Of a stretch of DNA of 25,269 bases, positions 1,758 to 19,800 are shown piece after piece. This DNA is from Deltaproteobacteria bacterium (GTDB lineage Bacteria > Desulfobacterota > Syntrophia > Syntrophales > UBA2210). How positions within the stretch are numbered: the stretch's first letter is position 1; the number at the start of each line of letters is the position of its first letter. Made by a program: the position numbers and the translations under genes. Below the pieces are notes generated by a model, which had not been told where the DNA came from, did not search any database, and saw nothing but the letters and a program-made list of their open reading frames with translations. The DNA lies in assembly GCA_011056825.1 (NCBI GenBank), contig DSBH01000137.1, forward strand, positions 1 through 25,269, read 5' to 3'.

Positions 1758-2483
1758 TCATTGATAAAAACGCACCCGGCAGTTCAACCCCGCCGGCAGG
1801 CGGTGGCCTGGATTGGGAAGCCGCACGCGGACGCCGAAGGTGCCGCTTGCCGCGTCTATGACTTCGTCGACGATTACGACCGTGCCGTCGTACGACCCGC
1901 CGACCGGTTCCTGCGGATGTACTTCGGCCTTCATCCCTTTTTCGATTGTTCCGTAATATTCGACGGGCACCACGACTTCCACATTCAACGGATCGATGCG
2001 GACTATTTTCATGATCGACCCTTCGCCGATGTACTCACCCGGACCGAGGTGTCGCTCCACTACGATGCCGTTCACGGGACTCGTGATCGTTCGAAGTTTC
2101 AGCCGCTCTTTCGCCTCCCGCAACTGGAGCTCCATGACGAGAACTTCTGTTTCCATTTCGTCCTTTTCATGGCTCGAAATGAGCTGCTTCTCGTAAAGCT
2201 CCTCGTTCCGACGGACCCGGCGCCTGCCGAACTCCAGGCGTGCCTCGGCAAGCTCGACCTGGGCCTTTTCAACACCCGATTTCAGGAGTGCAAGTACCTC
2301 TCCCTTCTTTATGCGGTCGCCGCGCTCGACGACGACCCGCTCGATAATACCCGGCTCCTGGCTGCTCACCTCGATAAGATCGCTCGGTTCCATAAGCCCC
2401 CGGTGAAACAGATCCTCGGCGACGCCGTCCGCCGGCCAGAAACAACACACTGCCAAGCATATCCACAGGAAAATATTTTTCAT
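1758..2483 (-). CDS. Efflux RND/HlyD-type periplasmic adaptor (membrane fusion protein), 241 aa, with N-terminal signal-like segment
   Basis: MKNIFLWICLAVCCFWPA signal-like N-terminus. Lipoyl halves IEVSSQEPGIIERVVVERGDRIKKGEVLALL and ITSPVNGIV, a coiled coil, VIDAASGTFGVRVRL and LPAGLNCRV. ATG 2483 has AAGGA and lies 7 nt after the SecA stop. Confidence 0.9.
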   Translation of the reverse strand: MKNIFLWICLAVCCFWPADGVAEDLFHRGLMEPSDLIEVSSQEPGIIERVVVERGDRIKKGEVLALLKSGVEKAQVELAEARLEFGRRRVRRNEELYEKQLISSHEKDEMETEVLVMELQLREAKERLKLRTITSPVNGIVVERHLGPGEYIGEGSIMKIVRIDPLNVEVVVPVEYYGTIEKGMKAEVHPQEPVGGSYDGTVVIVDEVIDAASGTFGVRVRLPNPGHRLPAGLNCRVRFYQ

Positions 2484-2490
2484 GATCCTT

Positions 2491-4497
2491 TCACTCGCTC
2501 CTTCCGGAAAACGACAATGTGTCGCTTCGTTCCTCGTCGTACCGGAGCAATCGTTTGCGGACTCCCGCGTGGACCCTTTCCACCCGCCGCTGGGCATTTT
2601 TCATGACTCGCCTTCCCATCGGTCCCCACAGGTTCGAACCGCTCCTGTTCATTATCTGTAACGCCCTGCCGGACAGGCCTTGATACCCGTCCCGCATCAG
2701 CGGATCCTCGAAAGAGATAAAAACCTCGCATCGACCGGGCTCCCCCTGGCGTCCGCAACGACCCGCGAGCTGGCGGTCGATGCGCCCGGCCTCGTGTCGC
2801 TCTGTCATGAGAACGTGCAATCCTCCCAGGTCGGCCATGCCCCGGTCAAGTTTAATGTCCGTTCCCCGTCCCGCCATGTTCGTGGCGATGGTGACGCGTT
2901 CCGGCTCACCGGCCCGGGCCACGATGAGCGCCTCCTCCCGATCTTGCTTCGCGTTTAACACCTGGTGCGGAATACCCCGGCCGTCAAGGAGCCGGCTCAG
3001 GCGTTCCGAAGCCGCGACGGTTCGTGTCCCGATGAGTACCGGCACGCCGCGCCCGTGAAGCGTTTCCACGCGTTCCGTGACGCGCTCATATTTTTCGTCC
3101 AGCGTGCGGAACACCTCGTCGCGGATTATTTTTCTTTTGAGGGGCCTGTTGGTGGGAATGCGGACAATGGGAAGACCATAGATGGACCAGAGTTCCCTCC
3201 GGACTTCCCGGGCCGTCCCCGTCATGCCGGACAATTTCAGGTACCGGCGGAAAAAACGCTGGTAGCTGATGCGCGCGACCGTTTCCCGCTGCCCCGTTAT
3301 ATCGCATCCCTCCTTGGCTTCTATAAGCTGGTGCAGGCCGCCTTCCCAGGACCGGTCGGGCATCACCCGCCCGGTAAATTCGTCGATGATCTGGACCTTC
3401 CCGTCGCTCACGAGGTACTGTTCGTCACGACTGTACAGGTGCAGGGCCGTCAGGGCTTTCCGGGCCAGTTCCTCGCGTCTGATGGGACTCTGCCAGACAG
3501 GCCCCATGTTTTCCGTCGCCAGGCGGATTTCTTCACGGCCGCCGTCCGTCATGACAATAGCCCGCACGGCCTGGTCGGCTTCGTACTCGATGCGGTAGTG
3601 AACCTTTTCCTTCAGGTTCCCCGCAATGGCCAGTGCCTGTTTCATCGTCCGTTCTTCGTCCGCCGACACGTCGCTCCGCGATATGATGAGCGGCGTCCGG
3701 GCCTCATCCACCAGGACGCTGTCCGCTTCATCCACGATGGTGTAGTGAAGCCCGCGCAGGAGCAGCCGGTCGCTTCTCCCCTCTCCCCGGGACAGGTGCT
3801 CGGCATGGAGTTGAAGCTCGTCGACGATGTCGCCCAGGGTAATGCGGTCTCTCAGGTAATCGAACACCACTTCCTTGTTGGTGCAGTACGTGATGTCGCA
3901 TCCGTAAGCGGCGCGTCGCTGGGCGGGCGTCTTGTCATGAACGACGCACCCGACCGAGAGGCCGAAAAAGCGGTACAGCTCGCCCATGAGCCCGGCATCG
4001 CGGTCCGTCAGGTAGTCGTTGACGGTGATCACGTGAACCGGTATGCCGGCCAGGGCCACCGTGGCCGCGGGCAGTGTCGCCACCAGCGTTTTGCCCTCGC
4101 CCGTTTCCATTTCCGCCAGCAGTCCCTTTAACAGGGCGTATCCTCCCATGAGCTGGCAGTCGAAATGTCGCATTCCCAGGACCCGTGTGGCGGCCTCCCT
4201 GATGAGGGCGAAAGATTCCCCGACCAGCGGCGGCGAAAATCCCTCCATACGCATCCTCCGCCGCAGGGGCCCGCTCCGTTCCTTCAGTTCATCATCCGAA
4301 AGCCTGTCCAGTCCCTCGGCCGCCTTCTCCACGCGCCCGATGATCCGTTTCAGCAACACCGCGCGGCCGCTCCAGGGGCGAACGAAGTATCCCGCAGTCT
4401 CCCACGCCATCCGGTCGAGGAATGTCTTGCGTCCCTCTTTTTTCTCCGGTCGGGCGAAGTGATCGGCCCGGGGCCAGTTTGAAACGGATCCGAACAT
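2491..4497 (-). CDS. secA: SecA-family ATPase, short paralogue (668 aa) lacking most of the HSD/HWD/IRA1 C-terminus
   Basis: AEMETGEGKT (Walker A), VHVITVNDYL, VFDYLRD, IVDEADSVLVDEARTPLIIS, NMAGRGTDIKL, ERHEAGRIDRQLAGRCGRQGEPG. The ORF ends shortly after AQRRVERVHAGVRKRLLRYDE, which is the start of the helical scaffold. It is not the housekeeping SecA. Confidence 0.93.
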   Translation of the reverse strand: MFGSVSNWPRADHFARPEKKEGRKTFLDRMAWETAGYFVRPWSGRAVLLKRIIGRVEKAAEGLDRLSDDELKERSGPLRRRMRMEGFSPPLVGESFALIREAATRVLGMRHFDCQLMGGYALLKGLLAEMETGEGKTLVATLPAATVALAGIPVHVITVNDYLTDRDAGLMGELYRFFGLSVGCVVHDKTPAQRRAAYGCDITYCTNKEVVFDYLRDRITLGDIVDELQLHAEHLSRGEGRSDRLLLRGLHYTIVDEADSVLVDEARTPLIISRSDVSADEERTMKQALAIAGNLKEKVHYRIEYEADQAVRAIVMTDGGREEIRLATENMGPVWQSPIRREELARKALTALHLYSRDEQYLVSDGKVQIIDEFTGRVMPDRSWEGGLHQLIEAKEGCDITGQRETVARISYQRFFRRYLKLSGMTGTAREVRRELWSIYGLPIVRIPTNRPLKRKIIRDEVFRTLDEKYERVTERVETLHGRGVPVLIGTRTVAASERLSRLLDGRGIPHQVLNAKQDREEALIVARAGEPERVTIATNMAGRGTDIKLDRGMADLGGLHVLMTERHEAGRIDRQLAGRCGRQGEPGRCEVFISFEDPLMRDGYQGLSGRALQIMNRSGSNLWGPMGRRVMKNAQRRVERVHAGVRKRLLRYDEERSDTLSFSGRSE

Positions 4498-4519: not shown

Positions 4520-6667
4520 CTACAGGTTGAAGGTTTTCATGAAAACACGGCGTAAAGTACGATACCACTGGGACGCGAGTGTTTCGGATTCGTGTTCGAA
4601 TCGCAGGTGCACCCGGGCCCCGAGCCTGTCCTCGATACGCTCGTCCAGCTCGACTTCGAAGTAAAACAGGGGTTCGAAGGAACGTCGCGCCTCGCTTTCC
4701 CGTGGATCGAGAGCGAAGGAACCGCCTCCTTCCAGCGCGAAGGCCAACGTCGGCAGTTCCGTCGAAGCCGCCGGCATTTCCCTCACCAGCCGGGCTGGAA
4801 TGCTCTGAAAAACGCGGCCCGCCGGGCGTGCCGTCACGGAACGGACATCATGGCGGATCTTGCCCACCTGGACCTGGGAAACCGGCACGAGCACGGAAAG
4901 TTCTTCGTAATTCACCACGTATCCCAGTTCTTCACCACGGCGGATGAAACGCCCCGGCAGATCAACGGCGTTGGGAAGAATAAACAGGCCGTCCCTGGAA
5001 CTGCTGACAACCAAGGCGTCCCGGCGCTCACGCGCCACTTCCAGCTCCTCTTCGATAAGGACGACCTCTTCACGCAGAATCCGCTCCTCCGTGCGGTCCG
5101 TGGCAAGGGCTTCACGGTGACGGGCCTGGTATTCCCGAAGTCTGGCCTCCAGCACTTGGACCTCTTTCTCGATATCGGGATTTTTCAGGATCATCAGGGC
5201 GTCTCCGCGCCCCACGGGCGAACCGGGCAATGCCACGATTTCTCGAACTGTTCCGGAAGCACCCGCGCGGACCCGCGCCTGCTCGTCCGGCCAGAAGACG
5301 CCTTCCGCCATGGTGGTCGAGGGAACCCGAACGAAAAATACCAGAGCGAGAACCACCGCGGCGCATCCAAGCGAGAAAGCGACGATACGGGCGCGCCTTT
5401 TGTACAGTTCCGGGTCTGATACCACGGTCCTGATAACCCTGAAAAACGGAACGGCCACAAGACCCACCAGGGCCCACAGGGCGATAAGAACGCCTATGAA
5501 AAAGAATTTCCCCGACACGAAGAGCGCGATCCGTATGCTGATGAAAATCCGGTAGATGAAGGACGCGATACTGTACGTAACCAGCCACGCCGCCTCACGG
5601 CCGTCGGCGAGGGAGAAACGCGCCTCGTCGTTCCTGATAATGTACCGTTGCGCCAGGTACCCGACATAGCGGTTCGAGCGGTTTCCCAAGTTGGGTATTT
5701 CCAGCAGATCCGCCAGCACGTAATAGGCATCGAAACGAAGCAGCGGATTCCCGTTGAAAAATATGGTGGAGACGCCGGCGACGAGCATGACGTTGAAAGC
5801 GACCGCCCTGACGGCGCCCGGTTCCAGGTTGACCCAGAGAATCATCGCCAGCGACGCGATGAGCATCTCCGCGGCAATACCGATGAATCCAACGACCATC
5901 CTTCGTTTCTTGTCTCTGAACGCGGACGCCGTCGACGCGTCGAGGTAGGGAACGGGCACGAACACGAGCAGCATGATGCCCATTTCGTGCACCTCGCCGC
6001 CCCAGTGTTTCACCGACCAGGCGTGGGCGAATTCGTGAACGGTTTTGACCACGGGATAAATGAACCAGAGAAGAACCAGGTTTTCCAGGGCCAGCACCCG
6101 GTCGGCGAGATTCATGGTCAACTCGTCCCAGTGCATGACGGCGAGCGACACAGCCGTCACAACCAAAACCGACCAGGCTATTAAGGCGTAAACACTGAAA
6201 AAGGGTGCCGCCAGTTTCCTGGTTCGTTCAAGAAAACGGTCAGGATCCAGAAGAGGAATGCGGACCGCCACGGGAGAGCGTATCCGGCTCAAGAATTGCT
6301 TTTTTTTGTCCTCTCGGCTGCGGTGCTGAATATTGCCGACGTCCGGCGCTGTGTCCGACCTGAGAACGTCGGCCTGGTTCAATTTCGAAACCAGGGTAAT
6401 CACTTCTTCCTGCGTGGGCATGTCGTCACCGAGATGCAGGCAGGCGGCTTCCCATATTTCCTGGAGCGTGCGTGACCCGTCCATGAGACCGATCAGGTAA
6501 TAGGCTTCCTCGGTGAAGCGGTGGAACCGTCCCGTCGAGTGATCCTGGAGCACATACCAGGCCTCTCCCCTGAAGGTGTGGCGGTGAATTTCCGCGTGAC
6601 CCCGCAGAATGGGCCTGAGACCCGCGACGCGGTACCAGGAACTGCTGTAAAGGTTTTTTTCAGACAT
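4520..6667 (-). CDS. PqqD/RRE-like domain + M50 (site-2) zinc metalloprotease + membrane fusion protein fusion, 715 aa
   Basis: N-terminal YYLIGLMDGSRTLQEIW...EEVITLVSKL (PqqD-like winged helix). HEFAH (HExxH) sits in a hydrophobic segment, with NGNPLLRFDAYY (NP..D third ligand) and several TM stretches. C-terminal lipoyl/coiled-coil region VRAGASGTVREIVALPGSPVGRGD. Confidence 0.88.
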   Translation of the reverse strand: MSEKNLYSSSWYRVAGLRPILRGHAEIHRHTFRGEAWYVLQDHSTGRFHRFTEEAYYLIGLMDGSRTLQEIWEAACLHLGDDMPTQEEVITLVSKLNQADVLRSDTAPDVGNIQHRSREDKKKQFLSRIRSPVAVRIPLLDPDRFLERTRKLAAPFFSVYALIAWSVLVVTAVSLAVMHWDELTMNLADRVLALENLVLLWFIYPVVKTVHEFAHAWSVKHWGGEVHEMGIMLLVFVPVPYLDASTASAFRDKKRRMVVGFIGIAAEMLIASLAMILWVNLEPGAVRAVAFNVMLVAGVSTIFFNGNPLLRFDAYYVLADLLEIPNLGNRSNRYVGYLAQRYIIRNDEARFSLADGREAAWLVTYSIASFIYRIFISIRIALFVSGKFFFIGVLIALWALVGLVAVPFFRVIRTVVSDPELYKRRARIVAFSLGCAAVVLALVFFVRVPSTTMAEGVFWPDEQARVRAGASGTVREIVALPGSPVGRGDALMILKNPDIEKEVQVLEARLREYQARHREALATDRTEERILREEVVLIEEELEVARERRDALVVSSSRDGLFILPNAVDLPGRFIRRGEELGYVVNYEELSVLVPVSQVQVGKIRHDVRSVTARPAGRVFQSIPARLVREMPAASTELPTLAFALEGGGSFALDPRESEARRSFEPLFYFEVELDERIEDRLGARVHLRFEHESETLASQWYRTLRRVFMKTFNL

Positions 6668-6682
6668 GCTATTTTTTTGTTC

Positions 6683-8530
6683 TCACGGCCACCACGACCA
6701 CGTCTTGAGCCGAAACCACTCGAAGAGGGGCCGCGTCCATATGCTCACGAGAAGCCGCCGGTCGACTTCTATCTTCCCCACCCCTTCCATGCCGGGCCTG
6801 AGGGCCGGCGACACCTCGTCGAGAGCGGCCTCCACGCGGAAATAATTACTTCCTTCTTCCGCCGTCGTAACGGGCGTTATCTTTTCCACCGAAAATTCAT
6901 AGTGCTGTGTCGGCAACGCCGACAGCACCAGGATTCCCCGCTGTTCCTCGGTCACGTCAGTGATGCGTGTTTCATCGACCTTGAGTATAAGGCGATAGCT
7001 GTCCAGCGGAGCTATACTGAAGAGTTCTTCCCCCTGTCGGATGGAACTTCCCAGGCGCTGACTGAGATCGCCGCTCAGCAGGATGCCGTCGAAAGGCGCC
7101 CGAATGTTGACGCGTTCAAGTTTGCTTTCCGCCAGTTCCAGCTGCGCCGCCGCCTGGTCGAGCTGCGCTCTTATCACGTTCGCCTCGGCGCGGTCCCCCC
7201 GTGCGACGGCCTCCTGGAGCTGGCTCTGATACTGATTCTTCTTGCTGAACCACTGGAGCCGTTCGAGGCGTAGATCCCTGTCGTCAAGCGCGCAGAGCAG
7301 GTCATTCCCGGCCACCACGTCGCCGGCTCGAACTGGCGCCGACTTGATGAAACCGTCGAAAGGCGCGACGACCGAACGCTGCACGGCGCCTTCAAGAACG
7401 GCGTCCGCTTTAATCCGGTATTCGCCTTTCGCAAAGGACAGCACCACGGCGAGAAGAACCATCGCCAGAAGCAACGCCTTCCTGCCCGCATAGCCGGCTC
7501 CGAAGAGCCGGATCGCCTGACGCTTCAGCGAATCGAACATGACAAAAACAACAGGCCTGTCCTGGTGGTGCTTGTCTTCGAGGGCGGGTCCCGAAAGGGC
7601 AACCACGCTTTTCACGTAAGCGAGTTCGGCTTCGGTAAAGGGGATATCTTTCTGGCGCTCCAGGGTAAGGGCGCCGTAGTAGCGATCTTTCGCGAAGAGC
7701 GGGACCGTCATGACCGACCGGCTGCCGTGCTTGTCTACAAGCTGTTCATGATCGCGGAGAACAAAGACGGGTGAATCAGGAAGCGGCGGGTACATGATCT
7801 CGGCCCTCTGGCTGACGGCCTCGTCCATGGCCGCCCCGACGGCGCGGTGAAGATTCATTTTACCACCCACCACCGCCGAATGGGAAACCGCTTCCACCCT
7901 GGCGTATTTTTTCCTGACGATACCCAGGCTCACGCGATCGCAGGACAGTCTCGTCGCGAGCGTGGTAACAAAGGCCATGGCGGCGCCGTCGAAATGTTCT
8001 TCCGCCAGAACGCCGGCAAGAATCTCGACGGCGGCCTTCATGCGGTCCAGCGCGGCCATGTCTTCACTGTTGCGCAGGCGGCGGTAATAATTTTCAATCC
8101 ATACCGCCCCCCACTTGAGGCTTTCCATGGCGGGTCGGAGCCGATCCTCGGACCCCGCGACTTCCACAGCTACGGCTCCCAGGCAATCGCCGTCCACGAC
8201 AACCGGGTAGGCAAGTCCGTAACGGGCGGCGCCGTCGACACGGGGAAGGTCGACAAGCATTCCCTCCTTCTCGGCAAGCGTCTGTTCAAGCACATCTGCC
8301 AGGCGTTCGCCGCCGTCGCTTCCCTCCGGCCAGGAAGCAACGGGAAGGTACTGCCCGCGACCGGGATCGCGCAGGACGAGAAACGCCTGGACGCAGCCCT
8401 CGATCGCCCCACACTGAATGGCGAGCCAGGAACTGAAAAACGCTTCCCGGTCCGCCAAACTATCGAGACCGGCCCAGTTGCTGACCGTTTTCCCCGAATC
8501 AATGACCTGTTCTTCGGAGCGAGATTCCAT
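6683..8530 (-). CDS. GAF-GAF-TM-HlyD periplasmic adaptor subunit, 615 aa
   Basis: GAF-like strands YGLAYPVVVDGDCLGAVAVE and SVMTVPLFAKDRYYGALTLER. One TM (ALLLAMVLLAVVLSFA). MFP region VVAPFDGFIKSAPVRAGDVV...IRAPFDGILL...LRPGMEGVGKI. Confidence 0.88.
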   Translation of the reverse strand: MESRSEEQVIDSGKTVSNWAGLDSLADREAFFSSWLAIQCGAIEGCVQAFLVLRDPGRGQYLPVASWPEGSDGGERLADVLEQTLAEKEGMLVDLPRVDGAARYGLAYPVVVDGDCLGAVAVEVAGSEDRLRPAMESLKWGAVWIENYYRRLRNSEDMAALDRMKAAVEILAGVLAEEHFDGAAMAFVTTLATRLSCDRVSLGIVRKKYARVEAVSHSAVVGGKMNLHRAVGAAMDEAVSQRAEIMYPPLPDSPVFVLRDHEQLVDKHGSRSVMTVPLFAKDRYYGALTLERQKDIPFTEAELAYVKSVVALSGPALEDKHHQDRPVVFVMFDSLKRQAIRLFGAGYAGRKALLLAMVLLAVVLSFAKGEYRIKADAVLEGAVQRSVVAPFDGFIKSAPVRAGDVVAGNDLLCALDDRDLRLERLQWFSKKNQYQSQLQEAVARGDRAEANVIRAQLDQAAAQLELAESKLERVNIRAPFDGILLSGDLSQRLGSSIRQGEELFSIAPLDSYRLILKVDETRITDVTEEQRGILVLSALPTQHYEFSVEKITPVTTAEEGSNYFRVEAALDEVSPALRPGMEGVGKIEVDRRLLVSIWTRPLFEWFRLKTWSWWP

Positions 8531-8619: not shown

Positions 8620-8976
8620 TCAGGCATTCCCTTTCCCCGCCGGATTGACATCACCCGTTTCGAGGCTGATCTCGCCGTAACGCTCTTCGTACTGGCGGAT
8701 TACGTTCGACAGGAGCAGGGCCATGCGCTTTGCCGCGAAAGGATTGAGAATGATACGATCGCTCATATCGACTGTCAATTCACGCTGCTCGGGATTCCAG
8801 GTCTTGTTTATCCCGAAAAGAACGGTAAATTCTTCGCGGGTGCTGGACACGTTGCACACGTTGGCGTAGCTGGTTCTCATGTTCGCCACGTCCCACTTGA
8901 TGGTTGTCTTCATGTCTTCCGGACCGACGGTGGCCGTTCCCTGCTTTTCGTCTATGTCTTTTTTCTGTGCTGCCAT
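8620..8976 (-). CDS. DUF3467-family small protein (118 aa)
   Basis: SYANVCNVSSTREEFTVLFG...RIILNPFAAKRMALLL...YEERYGEI is the recognised DUF3467 pattern. RBS GGAGG lies upstream of ATG 8976. Confidence 0.85.
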   Translation of the reverse strand: MAAQKKDIDEKQGTATVGPEDMKTTIKWDVANMRTSYANVCNVSSTREEFTVLFGINKTWNPEQRELTVDMSDRIILNPFAAKRMALLLSNVIRQYEERYGEISLETGDVNPAGKGNA

Positions 8977-9108: not shown

Positions 9109-10170
9109 TCATTTTTCCACGCTTGAGGACGTCGGCTGACCCTCGACGCCGGTCACGAGCAAAAAGGGCATTTCCAAGTTGACTATCCTACTGGAAATAT
9201 TTATAAATCCGTTATCTTCAAGGCAACGGACGTAAAATTCCGGCGTCCGGTAACTGTGAAAGAAAACGAGAAAGGGCAGCAGGGAGTAGCCAGGCGTCCC
9301 GGTGACCGGCGTCGAGGCCCGTTCGAAGATCAACAGCGTGCCGCCTTTTCTGAGCGCTCCGGCTCCTTTTTTTACCAGGTTACGGGCCAGGTGGCCCGGC
9401 CAGTCGTGAAGCGTGGATTTGAAGGTCACCAAGTCGTAGCCCGCCGGTAAATCATCCGCTAGGGCGTTCCCCTTCACGAATCGTATTCTGTCCGCTTCAG
9501 GACTGTCGCCCACGTGGTTCATTCCCACGTCGCAGACCAGCGGCAGGTCGAAAACGTCGGCGCGCAGCTCCGGATGTTCCCGGCACAGGCGGAGGGCGAA
9601 CTCGCCGCTGTTGCCTCCCACATCCAGCATCCTGCCGTACCGCCCGAAATCATGATATTTCATGCAGGCCTGTGATTCGTATTTCGTCAGTACCGTGGTG
9701 ACGCGCATCCACTGTTGCGTCACGCGGCGATTGTCCTCGCTTGAATCGAAGCACCGGTCATAAGCAAAGAGATGGGGGGAACGAGCTTTTTTCATGAACT
9801 CGTCCGGAGACGTTACCAGGTCGGAGAAAAACTCCAGGAAATCATGGGCGGAGAAATTCGACAGGGCGAGTTTCATTTCCATGAGATCGCGGAACCGCAG
9901 GGCATCGATGAATTTGTCTGTCAGTGAAAAAGCGCCGTCGCGGTCCTCCACCACGCCGTTCTCCGCGAGCAGGACCAGCAGAAAAGGCATTCCCCTGCCG
10001 TCCGCGCCCAGGCGCTTCACAAGCTCGTCCACCGTGACCTCACCCGCGCTCCTCAGCATGTCGATGAGACCGATTTCGAACGCAGTGGCCAGGGACCGGG
10101 CGTCGATCATGCGCCGCATGAAATCGTCAACGCACAGATATTCGAACTCCCTGTTGAATGTTTCCCGCAC
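9109..10170 (-). CDS. Class I SAM-dependent O-methyltransferase (Methyltransf_2-like, with N-terminal wHTH dimerisation domain), ~353 aa
   Basis: MLDVGGNSGEF, VFDLP, FVKGNAL, YDLVTFKSTLHDWP and GGTLLIFE motifs. GTG 10170 is preceded by GGAGG (CAGGAGGATTGC-GTG) and is preferred over the track start 10248. Confidence 0.85.
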   Translation of the reverse strand: MRETFNREFEYLCVDDFMRRMIDARSLATAFEIGLIDMLRSAGEVTVDELVKRLGADGRGMPFLLVLLAENGVVEDRDGAFSLTDKFIDALRFRDLMEMKLALSNFSAHDFLEFFSDLVTSPDEFMKKARSPHLFAYDRCFDSSEDNRRVTQQWMRVTTVLTKYESQACMKYHDFGRYGRMLDVGGNSGEFALRLCREHPELRADVFDLPLVCDVGMNHVGDSPEADRIRFVKGNALADDLPAGYDLVTFKSTLHDWPGHLARNLVKKGAGALRKGGTLLIFERASTPVTGTPGYSLLPFLVFFHSYRTPEFYVRCLEDNGFINISSRIVNLEMPFLLVTGVEGQPTSSSVEK

Positions 10171-10231
10171 GCAATCCTCCTGTAAATACGTACCGTGTTC
10201 ATCGCCGTCGTATCGCACGCACCGATGCTTG

Positions 10232-10260
10232 TTGTACATCGGGCGCATACGTATTATACT
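10232..10260. promoter_or_regulatory. Candidate overlapping divergent promoters (kinase on +, methyltransferase on -)
   Basis: Plus strand: TTGTAC (10232-10237), 17 nt, TATACT (10255-10260). Minus strand: perfect TATAAT at 10258-10253 without a well-spaced -35. Confidence 0.4.
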
Positions 10261-10296
10261 GCATTATCACCAACCATCGTGACAAGGAAATAGTTC

Positions 10297-10911
10297 ATGG
10301 GACACATCATCGCCGTTGCGGGGCCGATCGGAAGCGGCAAATCGACCCTCGTGAGAGAAATAGCCCGGGGTCTTGGTAACGCTTCCATACTGCATTACGA
10401 CCGTTATGAACATGCGACGCACCGGACACCCGCCGAGATGATTCAGTGGATGCGGGCGGGCGCCGATTTCAACGACTTCGCCCTTCCCGGTCTCACGCGT
10501 GACCTCTCGAAACTCAAAAACGGCGTTCCTGTCGTTAATTCCGCCGACGGGGAAACCATCGCGGCGGAGCGATTCACCGTGTTCGAGATGCCGCTGGGAC
10601 GGGCCCACCGGCAGGCCGCGTCGTTCATTGACCTGCTCCTGTGGATCGATATCCCCTTCGACATTGCCCTCGCCCGCAAGGCCGGCGAATACGCGAGGCG
10701 CCTCCTGGCGGAAGGCGACGGAACGGGCGGTTTGAATTGGCTCGCGGAATACTTTGGTAATTACCTGTCACTGATACGCCCGCTCATGAAAATCCAGGAA
10801 GAACGTGTCCGACCCGGCGCGGATCTCGTCCTTGACGGCCTTGAAGAACCCCGCGACATGGCCTGTCGGGCGGTCGAGGCAATCGGCGCCCGGTTCGCCA
10901 ACAATACCTAG
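10297..10911 (+). CDS. P-loop kinase, uridine kinase/phosphotransferase-like (204 aa)
   Basis: IIAVAGPIGSGKST Walker A, ILHYDRY, and IDLLLWIDIPFDIALAR lid region. RBS AAGGA at 10284-10288. Substrate unknown. Confidence 0.8.
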   Translation: MGHIIAVAGPIGSGKSTLVREIARGLGNASILHYDRYEHATHRTPAEMIQWMRAGADFNDFALPGLTRDLSKLKNGVPVVNSADGETIAAERFTVFEMPLGRAHRQAASFIDLLLWIDIPFDIALARKAGEYARRLLAEGDGTGGLNWLAEYFGNYLSLIRPLMKIQEERVRPGADLVLDGLEEPRDMACRAVEAIGARFANNT

Positions 10912-11774
10912 AAATTACCGTAATAACCGCTCTTGAGCACGGCAAGCCTGTCGTTTTCCATGCGGTAATCGAATCCCACGTCAAAGAGCAGGTGATCGAG
11001 GCGGAAATACTGTTCCTCCACGAAGGCGACCAGCGGCGCCGGGTAGCGCATCCACCGGAGAAAAAAGAGAAACTGATCGATGGTGATCCCCGAAAAGTAG
11101 ATGCAGTCACTTTGCTGCTTGTTGGCGCAGCAGATGGTCGAGCAATCCCGGAGTTCGGGCCGCAGAACTGCGTCCCGGGGAATTTTCGTTCCGTCGATCC
11201 GGGTGGAACAAAGAATCTTGGCGTCTATTTCATCCATCTGGTCGGCGGGATGAAAGAAAAAATATAAATTTTCCAGCTTCATGCCTTCTTTGGTCTGGGC
11301 GTAGCAGATTCCCGAGGACACGGTGCTGCCTGGATTGCCGATGTAAATGTGCGCGCAATCCAGATCCCGGCCACCGTTGAGCAGCGCGTCGTCCACATCC
11401 AGGGAAAACATGAAGTAGGGAATATTCTCGTCGGGAACAATCCGTGCGCGGACCCGCGGCGCCATTACCTGCAGCACCTTCGAAAGGGACCTCTCCCGCT
11501 CCAGGCGGCGGTAATCGTAAAAATAATATTCCCATCCCATGAAATCTCCGACTTTTTTCACGCCCCACACAGTGTTTCCCGGTCCGATTCCCCGGCGCAG
11601 GTCGTCAACCAGTTCGTGCATAGCGCCGCCCGCCCCCAGGACCTCGAAAGAATTCCGCAGCAGGTTGACGGACCGTAGCTTGCCCGCGGCCGGCACAGGG
11701 GGTTCGTATTCCCAGAGGCAATAATTGTAGAAAACATCCTGTTCTCCGGTGTATTCAAGATCGAAGGATTGCAT
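10908..11774 (-). CDS. Conserved-looking unknown protein (288 aa), possible ABBA/PT-barrel fold
   Basis: ATG 11774 lies 7 nt after the radical SAM stop, with AAGGA upstream, and the sequence is globular and aromatic-rich. The fold idea rests only on five apparent beta-hairpins. The track extension to 11975 overlaps the radical SAM gene. Confidence 0.75.
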   Translation of the reverse strand: MQSFDLEYTGEQDVFYNYCLWEYEPPVPAAGKLRSVNLLRNSFEVLGAGGAMHELVDDLRRGIGPGNTVWGVKKVGDFMGWEYYFYDYRRLERERSLSKVLQVMAPRVRARIVPDENIPYFMFSLDVDDALLNGGRDLDCAHIYIGNPGSTVSSGICYAQTKEGMKLENLYFFFHPADQMDEIDAKILCSTRIDGTKIPRDAVLRPELRDCSTICCANKQQSDCIYFSGITIDQFLFFLRWMRYPAPLVAFVEEQYFRLDHLLFDVGFDYRMENDRLAVLKSGYYGNF

Positions 11775-11781
11775 GGACCCG

Positions 11782-12699
11782 TTATCCTTCCGGCATTTTC
11801 TGTATCGGCCGCAGCCGGTCCTGTTCGTCGCCGTAGGCCGACACGTAAGCGCCGGACAGCCCCCAGCAGGACCAGTCGGCGCACTGTTCACGGTGCGGGC
11901 AATAACCGAACCGGCTTTTTTCGAACTCCCTCCAGAACGCGAGTGGAAGCACCGTTTCGGGAAACCAGCTGTCAAAAACGACTCCCGGCGCGGCGGGCAG
12001 GCAGTGGGGAAACCCCTTCAACACGAGCGGCCGTTGTTCCGGGCCGAGCATGCCGCGCAACCGGGGGACCAGAGAAACAACGCGTTCGAGATCGATCACG
12101 AGGCCGACCCGGTCGTCCGCCCGCATGGGGAAATAATTCCACAGGTGAAACTCGCTGATCTTTTCCGCCGAAAGCACCGCCATGAGCGTTTCCATGTTGT
12201 CGTAGTTTTCCGTGGTGAGAACCGAGTTGCTGATCACGTTGACATCGAAGGCGGCCAGGTTCGCGAGGCCGCGCATTGTTTCGCGCCAAGAACCGGGACG
12301 CCGCGTGATGTTGTCGTGAACGGCCCGTGTTCCGTGAACGCTGACGAAAAATTCGTTGACGCCCGCGTCGACGAGTTTGCGAAGATAGCCCGCGTCCGAC
12401 AGACGCCTGCCGTTGGTCTGTATCTGTATTTTCCGGAACCATCCCAGTGAGGCGGCGTAATCCACGTATCGCTCCAGCTCGCTGAACGTGGTGACTTCCG
12501 CGCCGGAGAGTATGAGGTTTTCATAAAGCCCGTGGTCCTTCACGTCGCGAACCACGTTTCTGAAACTGTCAAAACCGATCGGCGGCAGTTTTTCCCTGAA
12601 TCCCTGAAGCATGCAGAGAGTACAATCATTGTTGCACCCGAACCAAAGGGAAACAACGATATATTTTCGGAGGTCCACCCGTTCGCTCGCCACCGCCAT
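11782..12699 (-). CDS. Radical SAM enzyme (305 aa) with C-terminal Cys cluster
   Basis: CNNDCTLC (Cx3Cx2C), LILSGAEVT, IQIQTNG, FFVSVHG, HDNITRRPGSW, FPHC, and C-terminal CPHREQCADWSC. Confidence 0.92.
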   Translation of the reverse strand: MAVASERVDLRKYIVVSLWFGCNNDCTLCMLQGFREKLPPIGFDSFRNVVRDVKDHGLYENLILSGAEVTTFSELERYVDYAASLGWFRKIQIQTNGRRLSDAGYLRKLVDAGVNEFFVSVHGTRAVHDNITRRPGSWRETMRGLANLAAFDVNVISNSVLTTENYDNMETLMAVLSAEKISEFHLWNYFPMRADDRVGLVIDLERVVSLVPRLRGMLGPEQRPLVLKGFPHCLPAAPGVVFDSWFPETVLPLAFWREFEKSRFGYCPHREQCADWSCWGLSGAYVSAYGDEQDRLRPIQKMPEG

Positions 12700-12705
12700 A
12701 TCCGC

Positions 12706-13818
12706 CTACCGCGAGCTTCCGGCGACGCCGTAGTAAAACGTCAGGAAATCACGTCCTTCCCGGTCCAGGCCGCCCGAGACGTGGCCGAAATAACGTTCCT
12801 TCATGGGCTCGTACAAGCGCTGAAAATCATCCCGCGGCACGCCCCACAAATCGCAGGCATCACTGAGCAACGGATAAAATTCCTTCAGCGCGATGTTCGC
12901 CCGGTACATGTTGATATCAAAAGACAACCGGGGATTGTTTTCCTCAGCCACTTCCAGGTATAAAAATTCGTCCGGCCTCATGGCCGCGGCCGCCTTCTCG
13001 ACAAAACCCCGCACGATATCAAAGGGACCGTTTGACGGACCGGGATAAAACCGCTCGCGCACACGCTTCAATATGTCCTCCGGCGACAGAAGCGGATAAC
13101 AGGTGTACCTGGCCAGGGTGGCTTTCCGGTTGTCCGTCGCATCCCACTTGAATCCCAGGTGCAGGAGAAAAGATTCGGGAATATCGTACGAGCCCGGTTC
13201 TTTTTCATCGAACATGGACCCGAACTCGAGATAGGCCTTATAAACACCGCTCCCCTCCACGCCTTCATAACCGAAAAGCAGGATGTTGGCCTCATCCAGG
13301 TGTTCACGGAAAATCTTCTGAAAACGCGGCGGCATATCCAGAACGCGCAGGACGGGCAGGAGTTCTTCTGACGCGTCACCGCCGAGTTCGTCCCGGTTGA
13401 ATCCCAGGAGAACCCGGTCGCCGCATATGGTTTCGGGGATAATCTTGAACGAATGTTCCAGGCCGTAATGAACGCCGAGGGCATCCAGGAGCATGATGAG
13501 ACGATCCGCGCCCGTCACCCGGGCCGCAGACGCGCAAGCGGCATCAATGTTCCGGCCGTTTCCACGCCGCCGTCCGCCGTCATAAAGATCAATAATGCCG
13601 TAGTCAGATTCGTGACGCGCGATCGCGTCCCGCAGAACCTGTAAAAACCGCTTCGCCGCGGACGGGGTGAGAATAATCCTGGCCGCCGAATCAACGAGAG
13701 TCCGGTCGCTCTTTTCTGAATCCGGATCGGCGGCGCCGAAGATAAGAGAGATTTCCTCCCTGGTTTCCAGTATCCGGGTATCCCGGGCGTGCATTTCTCT
13801 GGGAGCGGAGATCCTCAC
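12706..13818 (-). CDS. DUF3467 domain fused to a LynF/PagF-like (ABBA) prenyltransferase-like domain, 370 aa
   Basis: aa 1-77 align by eye with 8620..8976 (TREEISLIFG/TREEFTVLFG; RIILTPSAAKRF/RIILNPFAAKRM; HESDYGII/YEERYGEI). The C-domain has LEHSFKI...DRVLLGF, YKAYLEF and FLTFYY, resembling cyanobactin F enzymes as recalled. The start (GTG 13818) is uncertain. Confidence 0.7.
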   Translation of the reverse strand: MRISAPREMHARDTRILETREEISLIFGAADPDSEKSDRTLVDSAARIILTPSAAKRFLQVLRDAIARHESDYGIIDLYDGGRRRGNGRNIDAACASAARVTGADRLIMLLDALGVHYGLEHSFKIIPETICGDRVLLGFNRDELGGDASEELLPVLRVLDMPPRFQKIFREHLDEANILLFGYEGVEGSGVYKAYLEFGSMFDEKEPGSYDIPESFLLHLGFKWDATDNRKATLARYTCYPLLSPEDILKRVRERFYPGPSNGPFDIVRGFVEKAAAAMRPDEFLYLEVAEENNPRLSFDINMYRANIALKEFYPLLSDACDLWGVPRDDFQRLYEPMKERYFGHVSGGLDREGRDFLTFYYGVAGSSR

Positions 13819-13889: not shown

Positions 13890-16800
13890 TCAGAGCCCCA
13901 CGCTCGTCCACCGTTTAAATCTCTTCTTGTCCTGGCGGGCCGCCAGCTCCCTGAATGATTCACGGTCTATGACGCCCGTTGCTGCGCGCGTGCCCAATGA
14001 ACCTCCGGCAAGTACTTTCCAGCCCATCATACTCGCAACCGCCGCTGTCCCGGCATCCGCTGAACCGCCTTCTCCATTTCCCTCTTCCTCTTCGTCGGAC
14101 GATTCGTCCTCTTCCGTCCCTTCGTTCGTTTCGCCACCGGAGTTTCCGGCACCTTCGGGAGCTTCACCGGCGTGAGAGGTATTTTCCTCCGTCGCCTCTT
14201 CTTCTATGGGCGGTTCCTCTCCCGGAGGCGTCTCGGATTCCGGAATGGAGGGCTCACCTTCGCCCGCGGACGGCGCCTGCGACAATCCGTGGTGATCCCG
14301 GGGCTGATCTGTTTGTTCATCGCCGGTACCGGCCAGCCCGTAACTGCCTTTGTGTCCCGCAAGATTTATTCCCGCCCCGGAAACACCCCATTCCTGGAAA
14401 CTCCCGAATAACCACCCTTCATCCGCAAATTCCCGGTCGCCGACTGTTTCTACTTCCGGTATCTCACCGATGTCTTTCCCGCCTTCCAGCTCCGTCATGA
14501 CATTGGCGATGAGGCTGGTGGTATCGAGCCTTATTACGGAAGTCACCTTGCTCGCATCAGGCGTGAAGGTCACTCGGCCATAGGTGTCGATCATGATGTC
14601 TTCCGAGAGGCTTCCGGCGAAGATGTTGTTGCCCGCGCCACCCATCATCACGTCGTTGCCCGCGCCACCGTCCATAAAATCATCGCCGCCGATGAAATAG
14701 TCGGTGGCTTCGAGCGTGTGCCAGACACCATTCAGGAGGGTAACCTCGCCGCTGTCGCCGAAGATGGCGTCGCGCCCGGAACCGCCGTATATGAAATCGC
14801 CTTTTGTACCGCCGATCAGAATATTTGTGTCGGCGGTCGTTTCGAGTGTGTCAACCCCGCCCACATCAGGCCATGTGCTGTAAACCGTCTCGGGGAGCCC
14901 GTCTTCGTCGTATTCCACAACGCCGTTGTCGCCGATAAGGATGTCGCTGCCGGTCCCCGTTATAATTTTGTCTGACCCGAAACCGCCGACAATATACTTC
15001 ATGCCGTTGCCGGTCGTGATCGTGTCATCACCGCCCTCGAGGGGAAGTGTCGATTCGATCAGTGAAAGTTCGAGACCACCCACCGGACCGGCGTATTCAA
15101 CACGACCGTTGTCGCCGAAGATCACTTCCGTTCCGTCGTGCGTGGTGATCTCGTCGGAACCCATGCCGCCGAAAATGACGCCGTCACCGCTGCCCAGGGT
15201 GATCGTGTCGTCGCCGCCGTACTCGGGATGGTCAACCGTGTCGGTCGTCTCGAGCACTTTCGGGGCGCCGTCCGTGTCATAGTTCACCCGGCCGTTGTCG
15301 CCCATGACCACGTGGTCGCCCACGCCCGCCGTGATGATATCGGCACCGAATCCGCCCACGATGTACTTCTCACCGTCGCCCGTTTCGATGGTGTCGTTGC
15401 CGCCCCGCGACAGTACCGTCGACTCGATCAGCGAAAGCTCGAGACCACCCACCGGACCGGCGTATTCAACACGACCGTTGTCGCCGAGAATAACGTCCGT
15501 CGTTCCGATCGTCGTGGCAGTTGTACTGATCGTGTCACTGCCCATGCCGCCCAGAATATGGTTGTTCCCGTCGCCGGTGATGGTGATCGTATCATCGTCA
15601 CCATAGGCCGAGTCGATTTCAGTGTCGGTCGTCTCGAGCACTTTCAGGGCGCCATCCGTGTCATAATCCACCCGGCCGTTGTCGCCGAAGACCACGTGGT
15701 CGCCGGTACCGGCCGTGATTGCGTCAATACCGAATCCACCGATGATGGTTTCATTGCCGTCGCCCGCGCTGATCGTGTCAATGCCGCCGACCGCCGGATC
15801 GATCGTCAAAACATTCGAAGGCGTGCGGTCAACGCCGTCGGTCCGGTCTTCCGTGCGGACACCGTGGCTCACCGAAAATACCGGGTATCCGCCTGCATTG
15901 GTTATAACAAGGTGGATGCCATCGGCTGCGACCGAATAATGTTCGATACCCTGCGCCGCGAGGTCATCGTTCAACAGGAATGCAAGTTGCCCCGCGATAC
16001 TTTCAACAGTCTCGACCTGGTCATCGGCAACCGTATATTCCGCCGTCGCTATCACTTCCCCTGTTTCGTCGTGTATCTCGATCGACCAGGTTTCGCCGTT
16101 TTCGGCGCCGCCCTCCAGGCGTATTACTCTCGAAATTGACAGCGGATCAGTTTCCGCTGAAAAATCCCACGAAGATGTTACTTCGATGGTATCGCCGACC
16201 ACCGGGGCGCCGTTCCCCAGAGAGGTCACGACGTCGCCGGTGTCATCACGATAATAGACCCGGCCGCGGTCCCCGAAGATGATGTCATCGCCGCTGCCGC
16301 CGTCGATTTCGTCCATTCCCGCCCCGCCGAATATCACGAGAGGCAGGCTCGACGCGGACCCGTCCACGGTATCGTCTCCCGCCTGAGTGTTGACCGCGAA
16401 GAAACCGTCCGTCGCTGCATTGAGGGAAACCGTAACATCATCGTCACCGTCGTTGGTGTTCAACGTTGTTATGGTCCTCACGCCGTCGGTCCGGTGGGTA
16501 CTGTCAACCGTTATGGTATCCCCGGCCGTACCGCTCCAGATCGTGATGCCACCTGCCATGTTACCGCCGGTGCTCTGATAATTGATGTCCGCCGGGGCCA
16601 GGCCGATGATGGCGGCGTTGGTAATAGTGGCCGTATCCGCAACCGTGTCGCCGGAGCCGTCCACGTTCAGGGTGTTCGACCCCCCCATCGTATCGACACT
16701 CAATTCACCCAGAATATCGTCCAGGGACCGTTCCGGGTTATACACATTTATACTATCATTCCCGTTTCCGGTGGTGACACTGGTTGGGGTTCCGAACGCC

Positions 16801-19800
16801 GTTCCCTCGACATTGAAACGGTCATTGCCGGATCCGAGGTCAACGTCCAGGCCTTCCAGGTTGTAGTAGTTAATTCCATTGAGCCGTGTATCCAGAATAA
16901 TGTCAACGTCGGTCAGGCCGGTCGCATCGACATCACCGTGTTCGATTTCGAGATCGGCGTACGCGCCCTGAAAGGTTATAAACAATACGTTGTCGACCTT
17001 GCGTACCGCCACGTTGTTCGTCCAGGGCAGGTCGTCCCGGCTGTTGTTCGGATTCAGTATCGGGGCCAGGCCGGCGTATACATCATCGGCACCGGCATCA
17101 TACGCAATGGGATCGGTCCACACGATGTTTTCCGTATTATCCGGGTCATAAACATAATCCATCCAGTCGTGATGCGCGTTATACACCGCTTCGAATCCGC
17201 GCAGACCTATGCGGTAAGTACCGGCGGCACTCCCCCCGGCATTCACCGTCAGTGTCTGGACAGTGTTCAGCAGGGATGCCGTGGTGCCGTCCTCAATCAC
17301 CGCGACTTCCACGTCGGGCGAAATATCCAGCGAACCGATTTCAAGACCGGTGTCATCCCAGGTTTCCGCCCAGGTAAGCTGCGGCATGTCCATGCCGGCC
17401 AGCGCGCCTGAGAAGGTGACCGTGTATGTCTTGGTCGCTCCGTTTATTGTCTCGGTCACGTCAATGCCGCCGTTCACTCCGTACAGTTCCTCGAGCCTTT
17501 CCCTGAGCATCGCGGAGTCATTGTTATACAGATCAAAACCAACTTCGACGGTTGCCGAATCGGCGGTCCTGGTCACGTTAACGGAATCCGCCATACCCGC
17601 GTCCGTGCCGAATCCCGCGGTCGCCATGAGATAGCTACCGCCTTCCGCGCGCACGCTGATGGTCTGGACTTCCTCAACCGTTGGCATATCAAGACCCGTC
17701 AGGGTTGTCTGCATCAGCGTACCGGCGTTATCGGAATCATCCCCGCTGTCATCGATATAGGCATGGTCGGCGTCGCCGCCGCCCTCTATGGTCAGCAGGC
17801 CGTTGATCTGGTCCATCATTCCGCTGTCACTGCCCGCGTAAACGGTGTCGACGCCTTCGCCGGCGTCGATAGTGGTGTGACCCGTGATTGTCTTAACGGT
17901 GATTTCATCCGTTCCATCACCCGCCGAGATGTGCGTGGCGCCGTGGTGGGTGGATTCAACAGTCAGGGTGTCGTTGCCGTATCCCAGCTCCAGGTTGAGA
18001 GCTTCCAGGTTCCCGTATTGAATGCCGCCCGGTATTATTTCACCGCCGATAACCGTGTCAGGCCCCATACCCAGTCCGTACAGCCGGTCCGCGGTAAGAA
18101 CACCGGCGTCATTCGAAGGGCTGTCGCCGTTGAACACGCTCAGCGTATCGACCTGATCGGCCTCGTCAACCAGGGTGTTCGGATTGATCGGCATGTAATA
18201 ATAATGGACGCCGGCGGCGGGCGCGACACCGTCGGGCCAATCCCTGGTAAAGGTTACGGTATTACCGTTTACGGACTCTACATCCATGACCGTACCGGCC
18301 AGGTCGCCGTCAAGGATTTTCACCCGGTAGAGGGCGTGGTTCATCCGCGGATCGAAACCGCCGCTCACATCGCCGGACTCGGGATCATAATGCGTAATAT
18401 CGTTATCCGTCAGCGTGGCCTTGCCGTCTCCATCAGTACCGGTGGACTCGATATCGCCGTCGGGCACAAGCTCGTTGGTCTCACCCGGAAGCATGTAGGG
18501 ATCTTCCAGGATCAGTTCCTCGCTGACCACCACACCGCCTTCGATCTCAAGCGGTCCCCTGATGGAGGCCGTTCTTTCTTCCATCGCCGGGAAGACCTGG
18601 GCGTCGCTTCCGTCCACGACGTTATCGTGAATAGCGTTGACGGTCACTTCCTGCGGTACGCTCCAGTTGTCAACCGTGAAAGTCAGGCTGTCGCTTTCAA
18701 CGCCGTTAACATATACCTGGATCGCCTCACGCTCACCGTTGTTCGCCTCATCATCGAACGCGAGGTCGGAGTTATAGGTACGGGTTGCAATGGCGGCCAC
18801 ATCAACCGTGACCGTTTCCCCTTCCGCCGGCGGACTGGTCAAAACCACCGTGAACGAATCGGTGGTTTCGGCGTAACCGGTCAGCGCCATAATGTCATAT
18901 GTGACTTCGAAACGGCTTGTATGGTCCACCGCTTCGGTAAGGGCGCTGTCAAACGTGAAGGTGCTGGTTTCCGGGGCATAATCGTCTATGGTGAAGGTCT
19001 GCCCCTGGCCGGTCCCTTCGGTGATCGTCAGAGTCTTTCCCTGAAGGCTGATCACATTGGGATTGATGATATGGTTCTGGAGAGTCGCGTTAAGCTGATA
19101 GGAAAGGCCCGTTTTCACGCCCGCGATCACATCCGCCACGTAATCATCCAGTGAGTCGGTGTAAGACCCCACTTCGATTCGGTAGAATCCGTCTTCTTCA
19201 AACGTATATTCCAGGAAGGGATCGTACGCAGTGTTGCTTCCCTTATCAACCCAATCACTGTAGTTGCTGGTTGCCAGCACTTCATTGCTCTCGTTATCCA
19301 CCAGCTGGAGATAGAGACTGGTCAGCAGCTCGTGATTGACAACCGACGTTCGCAGCTCAATCGTGGTACCATCAAAAAGCACATATTCCGTGTAAACAGG
19401 TTCCTGAATGATACTTTCGAGCACATTGCCGTAGTCAATATCGAAAATCCCCTGTACGGTGCCGTCGCCCCTGGTGGGTTCAACTGTGTCGCCGGCCAGG
19501 CCAGTCAGGGAAATCTCGGCACCGCTGACGGAAACGACAACTCCATCCAGTTCCGGAGCGGCGTCGAGCACTGATGCCAGTTCGGAAGCAATGTGGCTGA
19601 GCGTTTCGCCGGTCTCCTGCGCGGTGTATTCGTAAGCATTCCCATGCACCGTCACCGTCCACAGTTCCCCTTCCAGGACCAGTCCTTCCTTTTGCAGGGT
19701 GATGTCGGCATTGATCCAGTGATCCCGTGTATCCGGACTATTATCAGCCGTCCTGGAACCGGCGGCGACCCGCAGTTGTTCGATCTTTTCCGCTGTGACC

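Follow-up and report, generated by a model that had tools for sequence, protein, structure and literature searches.

A short SecA paralogue encoded with M50 and HlyD proteins is a candidate motor for the export of LEPR-XLL giant proteins

The stretch of DNA analyzed here, referred to as the window, covers the 25,269 nucleotides (positions 1 to 25,269, forward strand) of contig DSBH01000137.1 in assembly GCA_011056825.1, from a Deltaproteobacteria bacterium of the order Syntrophales (UBA2210). Its central feature is a gene for a short paralogue of SecA, which lies in an export operon with genes for a DUF3467 protein, a GAF-HlyD protein, a fusion of a PqqD-like segment, an M50-type intramembrane metalloprotease and a HlyD adaptor, and a small HlyD-type adaptor (Table 1). 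A HlyD domain is thus present in three proteins of the operon. The last four genes are separated by only 15, 22, and 7 nt, from the GAF-HlyD gene to the final adaptor; the clean stop and the 7-nt gap after secA that the initial annotation had pointed out are both there (TGA-AAGGATC-ATG, at 2483). Among named families, the protease scores best against NF041824, the daptide biosynthesis intramembrane metalloprotease (E = 1.6e-43), with 149 bits against a cut-off of 300. Pfam and NCBIfam scans detected no ATP-binding cassette (ABC) transporter domain in any open reading frame (ORF) of the window, and the locus contains neither secY2 nor accessory Sec genes.

Table 1. Features of the window (aa, amino acids; NBD, nucleotide-binding domain).
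Feature	Position	Strand	Remarks
Short SecA paralogue	2491..4497	-	668 aa: NBD1, PPXD, NBD2, scaffold-helix stub, family-specific tail; from ORF and Pfam
Stop codon of short secA	2491-2493		TGA
N-terminal extension	4354..4497	-	residues 1-48; ~31 residues beyond canonical SecA; conserved A11, R16, E18
Walker A region MET-GEGKT	4087..4110	-	residues 130-137 (GEGKT = 133-137)
DEAD box	3721..3732	-	residues 256-259
PPXD (preprotein cross-linking domain)	3319..3651	-	residues 283-393; Pfam
Helical scaffold domain stub	2527..2628	-	single helix, residues 624-657
C-terminal tail ...DTLSFSGRSE	2494..2526	-	residues 658-668; predicted disordered, conserved
Small HlyD/biotin-lipoyl-type periplasmic adaptor	1758..2483	-	241 aa, N-terminal hydrophobic segment
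PqqD-like / HEFAH-NPLLRFD intramembrane metalloprotease / C-terminal HlyD fusion	4520..6667	-	M50/site-2-protease type, daptide-protease-like
GAF-domain protein with membrane segment and C-terminal HlyD adaptor	6683..8530	-	Pfam/NCBIfam
DUF3467 protein	8620..8976	-	118 aa; head of export operon; in same place in 5/5 relatives
Accessory cassette between giant gene and exporter	9109..13818	mixed	syntenic in 4/5 relatives
Giant acidic repeat protein, 3' part	13890..25268	-	3,792 codons, 5' end off contig; RTX-like repeats; probable cargo

The short SecA retains the ATPase motor motifs of canonical SecA, including Walker A, the DEAD box, and the arginines of motif VI. Pfam recognizes SecA_DEAD at residues 49-437 (E = 5.5e-103), SecA_PP_bind, which corresponds to the PPXD (E = 4.3e-23), and P-loop_SecA, which corresponds to NBD2 (E = 2.1e-54). 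The sequences GEGKT, DEAD, GRGTD, and GRCGRQG are all present, and they are invariant or nearly so among 50 homologues. Of SecA_SW, the wing and scaffold family, only profile positions 6-34 of 200 are matched, under the cut-off. The protein ends 13 residues past RKRLLRYDE, about 30 residues into the scaffold helix, and three independent alignments agree on this truncation point. Namely, the alignment to solved SecAs halts at residue 646 of 871 in Thermotoga maritima and 601 of 841 in Bacillus subtilis; residues 49-655 align with residues 18-603 of the genome's own 842-aa SecA, with 43% identity; and the Pfam profile breaks off at the same place. About 239 canonical C-terminal residues have no counterpart. 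In canonical SecA, this region holds the distal half of the scaffold's long helix, the helical wing domain, IRA1 or the two-helix finger, which enters SecY, and a linker with a zinc finger. What the initial annotation had read in the sequence therefore holds: the Walker A, DEAD, PPXD, and NBD2 motifs are intact, the protein stops shortly after RKRLLRYDE at the start of the scaffold, and the two-helix finger is gone, like the wing domain.

The profile scores agree with this picture. The short SecA falls below the family cut-offs for canonical SecA, with 640 versus 814 bits and 618 versus 800 bits (models NF009538 and TIGR00963), the best stretch ending at model position 491/814. It also falls below those of the SecA2 models TIGR03714, TIGR04221, TIGR04397, and NF012136 (417-572 bits versus cut-offs of 725-1100). 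The NCBIfam SecA and SecA2 matches are thus strong while far under cut-off, and their alignments end near model position 600 of ~790. An AlphaFold model (mean predicted local distance difference test score [pLDDT], 81.9; predicted template modeling score, 0.80) recovers the SecA fold with the scaffold reduced to a stub, a 34-residue helix at 624-657, followed by a disordered tail. When this model was used in a structure search, the matches of high significance were SecA structures only. The best superpositions were with substrate-engaged SecA in the SecA-SecY complexes 6ITC and 5EUL (template modeling scores of 0.80 and 0.79; root mean square deviation [rmsd], 3.1 Å), and the engineered truncation SecA-N68 (5K9T) was also among the matches (E = 3.8e-45). 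As a side observation, the rmsd to free SecA structures is 7-15 Å, versus 3.1 Å to substrate-engaged SecA with the PPXD clamp closed; this may be a modeling preference.

The short form is the norm of the SecA family to which the protein belongs. In a homologue search that took in proteins of 367-1169 aa, the best 120 homologues listed are all 585-686 aa long, most of them 660-670 aa, with 53-90% identity; those with a named source come from Syntrophales, Desulfosudaceae, Desulfococcus, Desulfuromonadaceae, and other Thermodesulfobacteriota. We then examined the best 150 representatives, at 50% identity, from a profile search of 1.84 billion cluster representatives. Their lengths are 640-700 aa in 140 cases (median, 663), and in almost all of them the match reaches the protein's own C-terminus. 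The family is therefore large, with at least 140 clusters at 50% identity, and homologues both near and distant are short rather than full length. Two outliers stand among these 150 representatives. P0349 (1,240 aa) is a long SecA in which the wing-scaffold domain is complete, and P0378 (4,930 aa), which holds several SecA motor pieces together with repeated Fis-type helix-turn-helix domains, looks like a mis-assembled or mis-called chimera.

The genome of the window also encodes a canonical SecA, the 842-aa protein on contig C37, and a second short secA on contig C165 (L038), whose product is of identical length and 79% identical to that of the window, in the same gene context. The five relatives that share the operon each have canonical-type SecA_DEAD matches beside the short copy, as whole frames of 844-868 codons in G083, G099, and G085 and as contig-end fragments in G030 and G017. 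Between the two short copies of the window's genome, the ratio of nonsynonymous to synonymous substitution rates (dN/dS) is 0.085, with a dS of 1.65 that is near saturation. Over the last 20 codons, the proportion of nonsynonymous differences is 0 and that of synonymous differences is 0.70. The gene is thus intact, and purifying selection on it is strong, down to the last 20 codons. A quick maximum-likelihood analysis groups the four canonical SecAs together, with a support of 100, at the end of a long branch (1.44) that separates them from every short protein; the two short SecAs of this genome come out as sisters. The initial annotation had argued against decay, and the homologue lengths, the dN/dS ratio, and the phylogeny all go that way. 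On C165, the M50-HlyD, short SecA, and HlyD proteins show 78-79% identity to those of the window, and the secA DNA 74%; this copy could be a lineage-specific duplication or come from a second strain in the same bin, in an assembly that is 80% complete and split into 309 contigs.

The family has acquired termini of its own. An alignment of 50 short SecAs shows three features that are absent from canonical SecA: the N-terminal extension; an 18-residue insertion in NBD1, at about residues 226-243, with an invariant E233; and a conserved C-terminal tail, ...LSFSGRxE. The tail defines a family motif, L-x-F-x-G-x-x-E, at the very C-terminus. Among the 140 representatives of normal length, 99 have [LMIV]-x-F-x-G inside the last 12 residues, versus 0.17% of random internal 12-mers that fit the same pattern. 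In 82 of these 99, exactly three residues follow the glycine of the motif, the last one usually being glutamate. In this genome and three relatives, canonical SecA has CPCGSGKKYKxCCG as its ending, which none of the short proteins shows. Since a terminal peptide that is conserved yet disordered is what a docking motif predicts, we infer that the tail may serve as one.

To see how widely the operon occurs, we used 101 genomes sampled from the order, representing 53 genera; these genomes are related, so the co-occurrence counts are descriptive. The protease-adaptor fusion is present in 14 of the 101 genomes and in 5 of the 53 genera. The order DUF3467, GAF-HlyD, PqqD-like-M50-HlyD, short SecA, HlyD is syntenic in five relatives belonging to four other genera. 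Where the contig is long enough, the locus in these relatives opens with a gene for TolC, followed by a giant one of about 8,500-10,900 codons, giving the full order TolC, giant LEPR-XLL protein, cassette (when present), DUF3467, GAF-HlyD, M50-HlyD, short SecA, and HlyD. Taken together, the LEPR-XLL-tagged proteins at this place in relatives span 8,500-12,500 aa. In G083, DUF3467 and the exporter genes come immediately after the giant gene. The 24-residue LEPR-XLL domain (NF012209; cut-off, 17 bits) lies at the N-termini of the syntenic giants, with 33.3 bits in G099 and 21.6 bits in G083, and is preceded by a long basic stretch. Across the sample, it occurs in 11 of the 14 module-positive genomes and in 1 of the 87 module-negative ones, the latter being a weak match in a 46-codon frame. 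Both the operon and its link to this probable cargo are conserved.

The window's own genome has one LEPR-XLL N-terminus (34.7 bits). It lies at the end of the 6.8-kb contig C109, right after a TolC gene whose product is 59% identical to the TolC of the relatives. On this contig (L037, 1028-6817), the gene after that of the TolC-family protein covers the N-terminal 1,494 codons of a giant, with a basic leader, the sequence LEPRLLLSAE, and a DUF4347-like region, before it runs off the contig end. The fragment is probably the missing 5' part of either the window locus or the C165 locus; when we tried to join it to the window's open giant gene, the ends showed no overlap. At the other end of the giant protein, the last ~55 residues are conserved among relatives. 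In five genomes, this C-terminus (13890-14060 in the window) follows the pattern …GLMGWKVISGG…ID..SF..L…KRFKxWK…, a hydrophobic patch and then a basic tail, preceded by an acidic or Gly-rich low-complexity linker. This segment could act as a secretion signal at the C-terminus or as an anchor.

The module also comes in a second, divergent subtype, seen in G014 (contig C26), G053 (C46), G068 (C121), and G083 (C83), the last of which carries both subtypes. Its M50-HlyD protein is 31-32% identical, and its short SecA ends in ...ALSFSGPSAEV. LEPR-XLL N-termini lie ~2.3 kb away on the contigs of this subtype in G014, G068, and G083, in open frames of 694-2,452 codons.

A family of this kind has been described by computer analysis. 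Kamneva, Poudel & Ward (PLoS One 2015, PMC4452313) reported what they call secondary SecA_DEAD domain proteins, which are found in addition to canonical SecA and in which SecA_SW is missing wholly or for the most part. Their locus includes GAF-, Peptidase_M50-like-, and HlyD/biotin-lipoyl-domain proteins, sometimes OEP/TolC, and no ABC transporter. In the authors' proposal, SecA_DEAD would act as the ATPase and the M50 protein would form the membrane part. In Methylobacterium extorquens AM1, META1p2402-2399 follow the order GAF, M50, SecA_DEAD, HlyD, as in the window. The window gene has only a fragment of SecA_SW, a canonical SecA beside it in the genome, and the same locus order; it is a further member of this family, and neither the protein family nor the locus is new. 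The published account makes no mention of DUF3467, giant or LEPR-XLL proteins, a cargo, the tail motif, or the PqqD-like domain. Judged by the sources of its homologues, the member described here belongs to a Thermodesulfobacteriota-type lineage. New beyond the published picture are the family-wide C-terminal motif and the selection on it, the N-terminal extension, the NBD1 insertion, the quantified constancy of length, and the genome-by-genome link to LEPR-XLL cargo in this order.

The most likely role of the short SecA, with a probability that we put at roughly 0.6, is that of the motor of a dedicated, TolC-linked exporter that works without an ABC transporter and whose cargo is most likely the giant LEPR-XLL protein encoded upstream. 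That this SecA has been repurposed was proposed in the initial annotation, and the proposal gains support from the short homologues, the selection on the gene, the canonical SecA elsewhere in the genome, the loss of the SecY-engaging parts, and the M50/HlyD operon. The M50-HlyD fusion and two further HlyD adaptors of the conserved operon fit a repurposed motor, an idea already put forward for the four-gene locus in PMC4452313. In this reading, the protein would act independently of SecYEG and dock on the M50 and membrane fusion (HlyD-type) proteins.

Such an exporter might work as follows. The parts needed to bind and push an unfolded chain, namely, the two RecA-like domains and the PPXD clamp, are retained in the short SecA. 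Absent are the distal scaffold helix, wing domain, and two-helix finger, through which canonical SecA couples to SecY, and the zinc-finger tail, through which it couples to SecB or the ribosome. The PqqD-like/M50-HlyD fusion may receive the motor at its cytoplasmic face, where the C-terminal peptide, the NBD1 insertion, and the N-terminal extension would serve for docking. The basic, signal-peptide-like LEPR-XLL leader would be recognized by the PqqD-like domain together with the SecA clamp and then cut off by the intramembrane protease. Cycles of ATP hydrolysis could push the chain into a conduit that the three HlyD-type adaptors form together with the TolC encoded beside the cargo gene, with the GAF domain perhaps gating the machine.

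Several points weigh against this interpretation. No channel is recognizable in the module, and assigning the role of protein-conducting channel to the M50 membrane domain is a guess. The RTX-like repeats and the conserved C-terminus of the giant resemble those of type I secretion, which proceeds C-terminus first; a SecA clamp on an N-terminal leader is then not obviously needed. The PqqD match in the N-terminus of the M50 fusion (E = 6e-4 over the whole profile) is below the Pfam cut-off. Three of the 14 module-positive genomes have no LEPR-XLL match, and since the 101 genomes are kin, their co-occurrence counts make the support look stronger than it is. The giant gene of the window runs off the contig at its 5' end, which leaves its leader out of view there. 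In the only expression data cited, from M. extorquens AM1, the SecA-like, M50, and HlyD genes were silent or very low in exponential growth (re-analysis in PMC4452313). Among the public sequencing runs listed as containing the window's genome, none was an RNA run, and the DNA runs had it as a small share only. Our literature search found no bench study on any member of the short SecA family.

The main rivals of the exporter-motor reading are a holdase or targeting role and a SecA2-like role at SecYEG. According to the first, the short SecA would be a cytoplasmic holdase, unfoldase, or targeting factor for the giant chain, and the energy for export would come from the proton-motive force or from an unlinked ABC transporter. 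The missing channel speaks for this scenario, as do the RTX-like repeats and conserved C-terminus of the giant, which are typical of ABC-driven type I substrates. Canonical SecA itself has chaperone-like and ribosome-binding activities. Nonetheless, we consider this role unlikely. The short secA is close-packed between two genes for membrane proteins, with gaps of 22 and 7 nt, which suggests a stoichiometric complex. Furthermore, no ABC transporter gene is found in the window or in the examined stretches of the relatives' loci, where the ORFs beyond the module carry no annotation, and none is reported in such loci (PMC4452313).

In the second scenario, the protein would be an accessory, SecA2-like motor at SecYEG, alone or as a heterodimer with canonical SecA, and the HlyD, M50, and TolC proteins would act after the inner membrane has been crossed. 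Over the region in common, the fit to the NCBIfam SecA2 models is good, though far below their cut-offs, and the clade of secondary SecA_DEAD proteins has been placed beside actinobacterial SecA2 (PMC4452313). In addition, the LEPR-XLL leader is basic and then has a short hydrophobic run, which makes it loosely signal-peptide-like, and the PPXD, which contacts SecY in solved complexes, is kept. Against this, the two-helix finger, the wing domain, and the distal scaffold helix are gone in the whole family, while solved SecA2 proteins retain them: the alignments to 6T4H and 4UAQ (781- and 778-residue chains) end at residues 608-614. Instead of secY2 or accessory Sec genes, the locus has a tight operon with inner-membrane HlyD fusions. 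These observations make a role at SecYEG improbable.

It is very unlikely that the module matures and exports a small unannotated peptide, in the manner of ribosomally synthesized and post-translationally modified peptides, with the giant gene as a mere neighbor. The daptide protease as best named match of the M50 protein, its PqqD-like N-terminus, and the radical SAM enzyme and O-methyltransferase encoded between the giant gene and the exporter would fit such a system, but the daptide match reaches only about half of its cut-off, the enzyme cassette is missing in G083, and LEPR-XLL giants co-occur with the module genome by genome. Finally, a decaying secA that arose by a recent nonsense mutation, for which the short length is the sole support, is ruled out by the same length in at least 140 clusters, the dN/dS of 0.085, the absence of any amino acid change in the last 20 codons, and the family's own conserved C-terminal motif.

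We next compared the putative exporter with known systems. The secondary SecA_DEAD proteins share the reduced SecA_SW, the gene order, the lack of an ABC transporter, and the occasional TolC/OEP gene (PMC4452313). Housekeeping SecA (TIGR00963, NF009538; 3DIN, 5EUL, 6ITC) shares with the short form NBD1, the PPXD, NBD2, and the beginning of the scaffold helix (~30 residues). In contrast, the short form is without ~239 C-terminal residues and has gained ~31 N-terminal residues, the 18-residue NBD1 insertion, and a new tail. SecA-N68, an engineered C-terminal truncation of Escherichia coli SecA, has nearly the same content, with motor and PPXD but no C-domain. It is said, after Karamanou et al. 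in 1999, to have a deregulated ATPase and to support no translocation. SecA-N68 is a laboratory fragment, whereas the short form is natural, still has a scaffold stub, and has evolved new termini, which presumably serve regulation by new partners. SecA2 of Gram-positives and mycobacteria (TIGR03714, TIGR04221; 4UAQ, 6T4H) is likewise a second, substrate-dedicated paralogue beside SecA1. However, SecA2 keeps the scaffold and the two-helix finger and acts at SecY or SecY2, and the partners here are HlyD, M50, and TolC proteins.

The module shares other traits with the type I systems that secrete giant RTX adhesins (LapA-LapBCE with LapG/LapD; SiiE-SiiCDF) and with peptidase-containing ABC transporters (PCAT): a giant protein with RTX-like repeats, HlyD-type adaptors, and TolC by the cargo. 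Further traits in common are a protease that acts on a leader or retention module and a cytoplasmic domain of nucleotide-sensor type, GAF here and the cyclic di-GMP-binding LapD there. The module has the HlyD-type fusion protein and the TolC-type factor of type I secretion but not its ABC-transporter ATPase. In place of the latter it has a SecA-derived ATPase; there are three adaptors rather than one, the intramembrane metalloprotease is fused to an adaptor, and the conserved targeting tag, LEPR-XLL, is N-terminal.

Taken one step further, the sequences allow a tentative proposal, which we hold as somewhat less probable than not. The module may be a distinct, unnamed trans-envelope system, made of a SecA-derived ATPase, a leader-binding protease-adaptor, two adaptors, and TolC, that exports LEPR-XLL giants N-terminus first without SecYEG or an ABC transporter, with L-x-F-x-G-x-x-E as a docking element in place of the SecY- and SecB-binding parts. 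Its substrates, of 8,000-12,000 aa or more, would be the largest known bacterial proteins. If the motor role inferred above is right, SecA, the textbook partner of SecYEG, would have been re-used as the engine of a TolC-linked exporter for proteins of ~10,000 residues, and a secretion route would be missing from current classifications. It would also explain the exit route of LEPR-XLL giants, including the symbiosis proteins of Chlorochromatium consortia. In this regard, the giants Cag_663 and Cag_665 of Chlorobium chlorochromatii have N-terminal LEPRxLL domains with a TolC gene between them, and they are reported to be expressed, exported, and to reach the partner cell (bioRxiv 10.64898/2026.03.19.712371). 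The same study describes one horizontally acquired secA in Chlorochromatium, which it does not tie to the export of the giants.

We also considered whether the DUF3467 protein is a SecB-like chaperone that matches the lost SecB-binding tail, which proved unsupported. Its model has four strands and a long helix, with a pLDDT of only 67. A Foldseek search against the PDB gave no match, the best hit in a wide VIA-align search (Z = 3.1) involved the helix only, and a profile of 45 DUF3467 proteins retrieved nothing from PDB sequences. Hhalign against nine SecB sequences gave a probability of 0.1%, and an ESM Atlas search returned DUF3467 clusters only. SecB was not found in the 80%-complete genome of the window.

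Scans of the window for promoters and terminators gave results not above shuffled expectation. The accessory cassette encodes a DUF3467-fused 370-aa protein, a radical SAM enzyme (HxsC-like, below cut-off), a ~282-aa protein, a kinase-like protein on the plus strand, and an O-methyltransferase. No Pfam family, at E up to 10, was matched by the C-terminal 276 aa of the DUF3467-fused protein or by the ~282-aa protein. The cassette is syntenic at 41-62% identity in G099, G085, G017, and G030; it is not core to the module, since it is absent from the fifth relative, G083. Downstream of the operon, on the plus strand (3-1267), lie genes for a ThyX-type thymidylate synthase, cut at its 5' end by the contig edge, and an FmdB-family zinc-ribbon protein; neither is related to the export module, whose end they mark.

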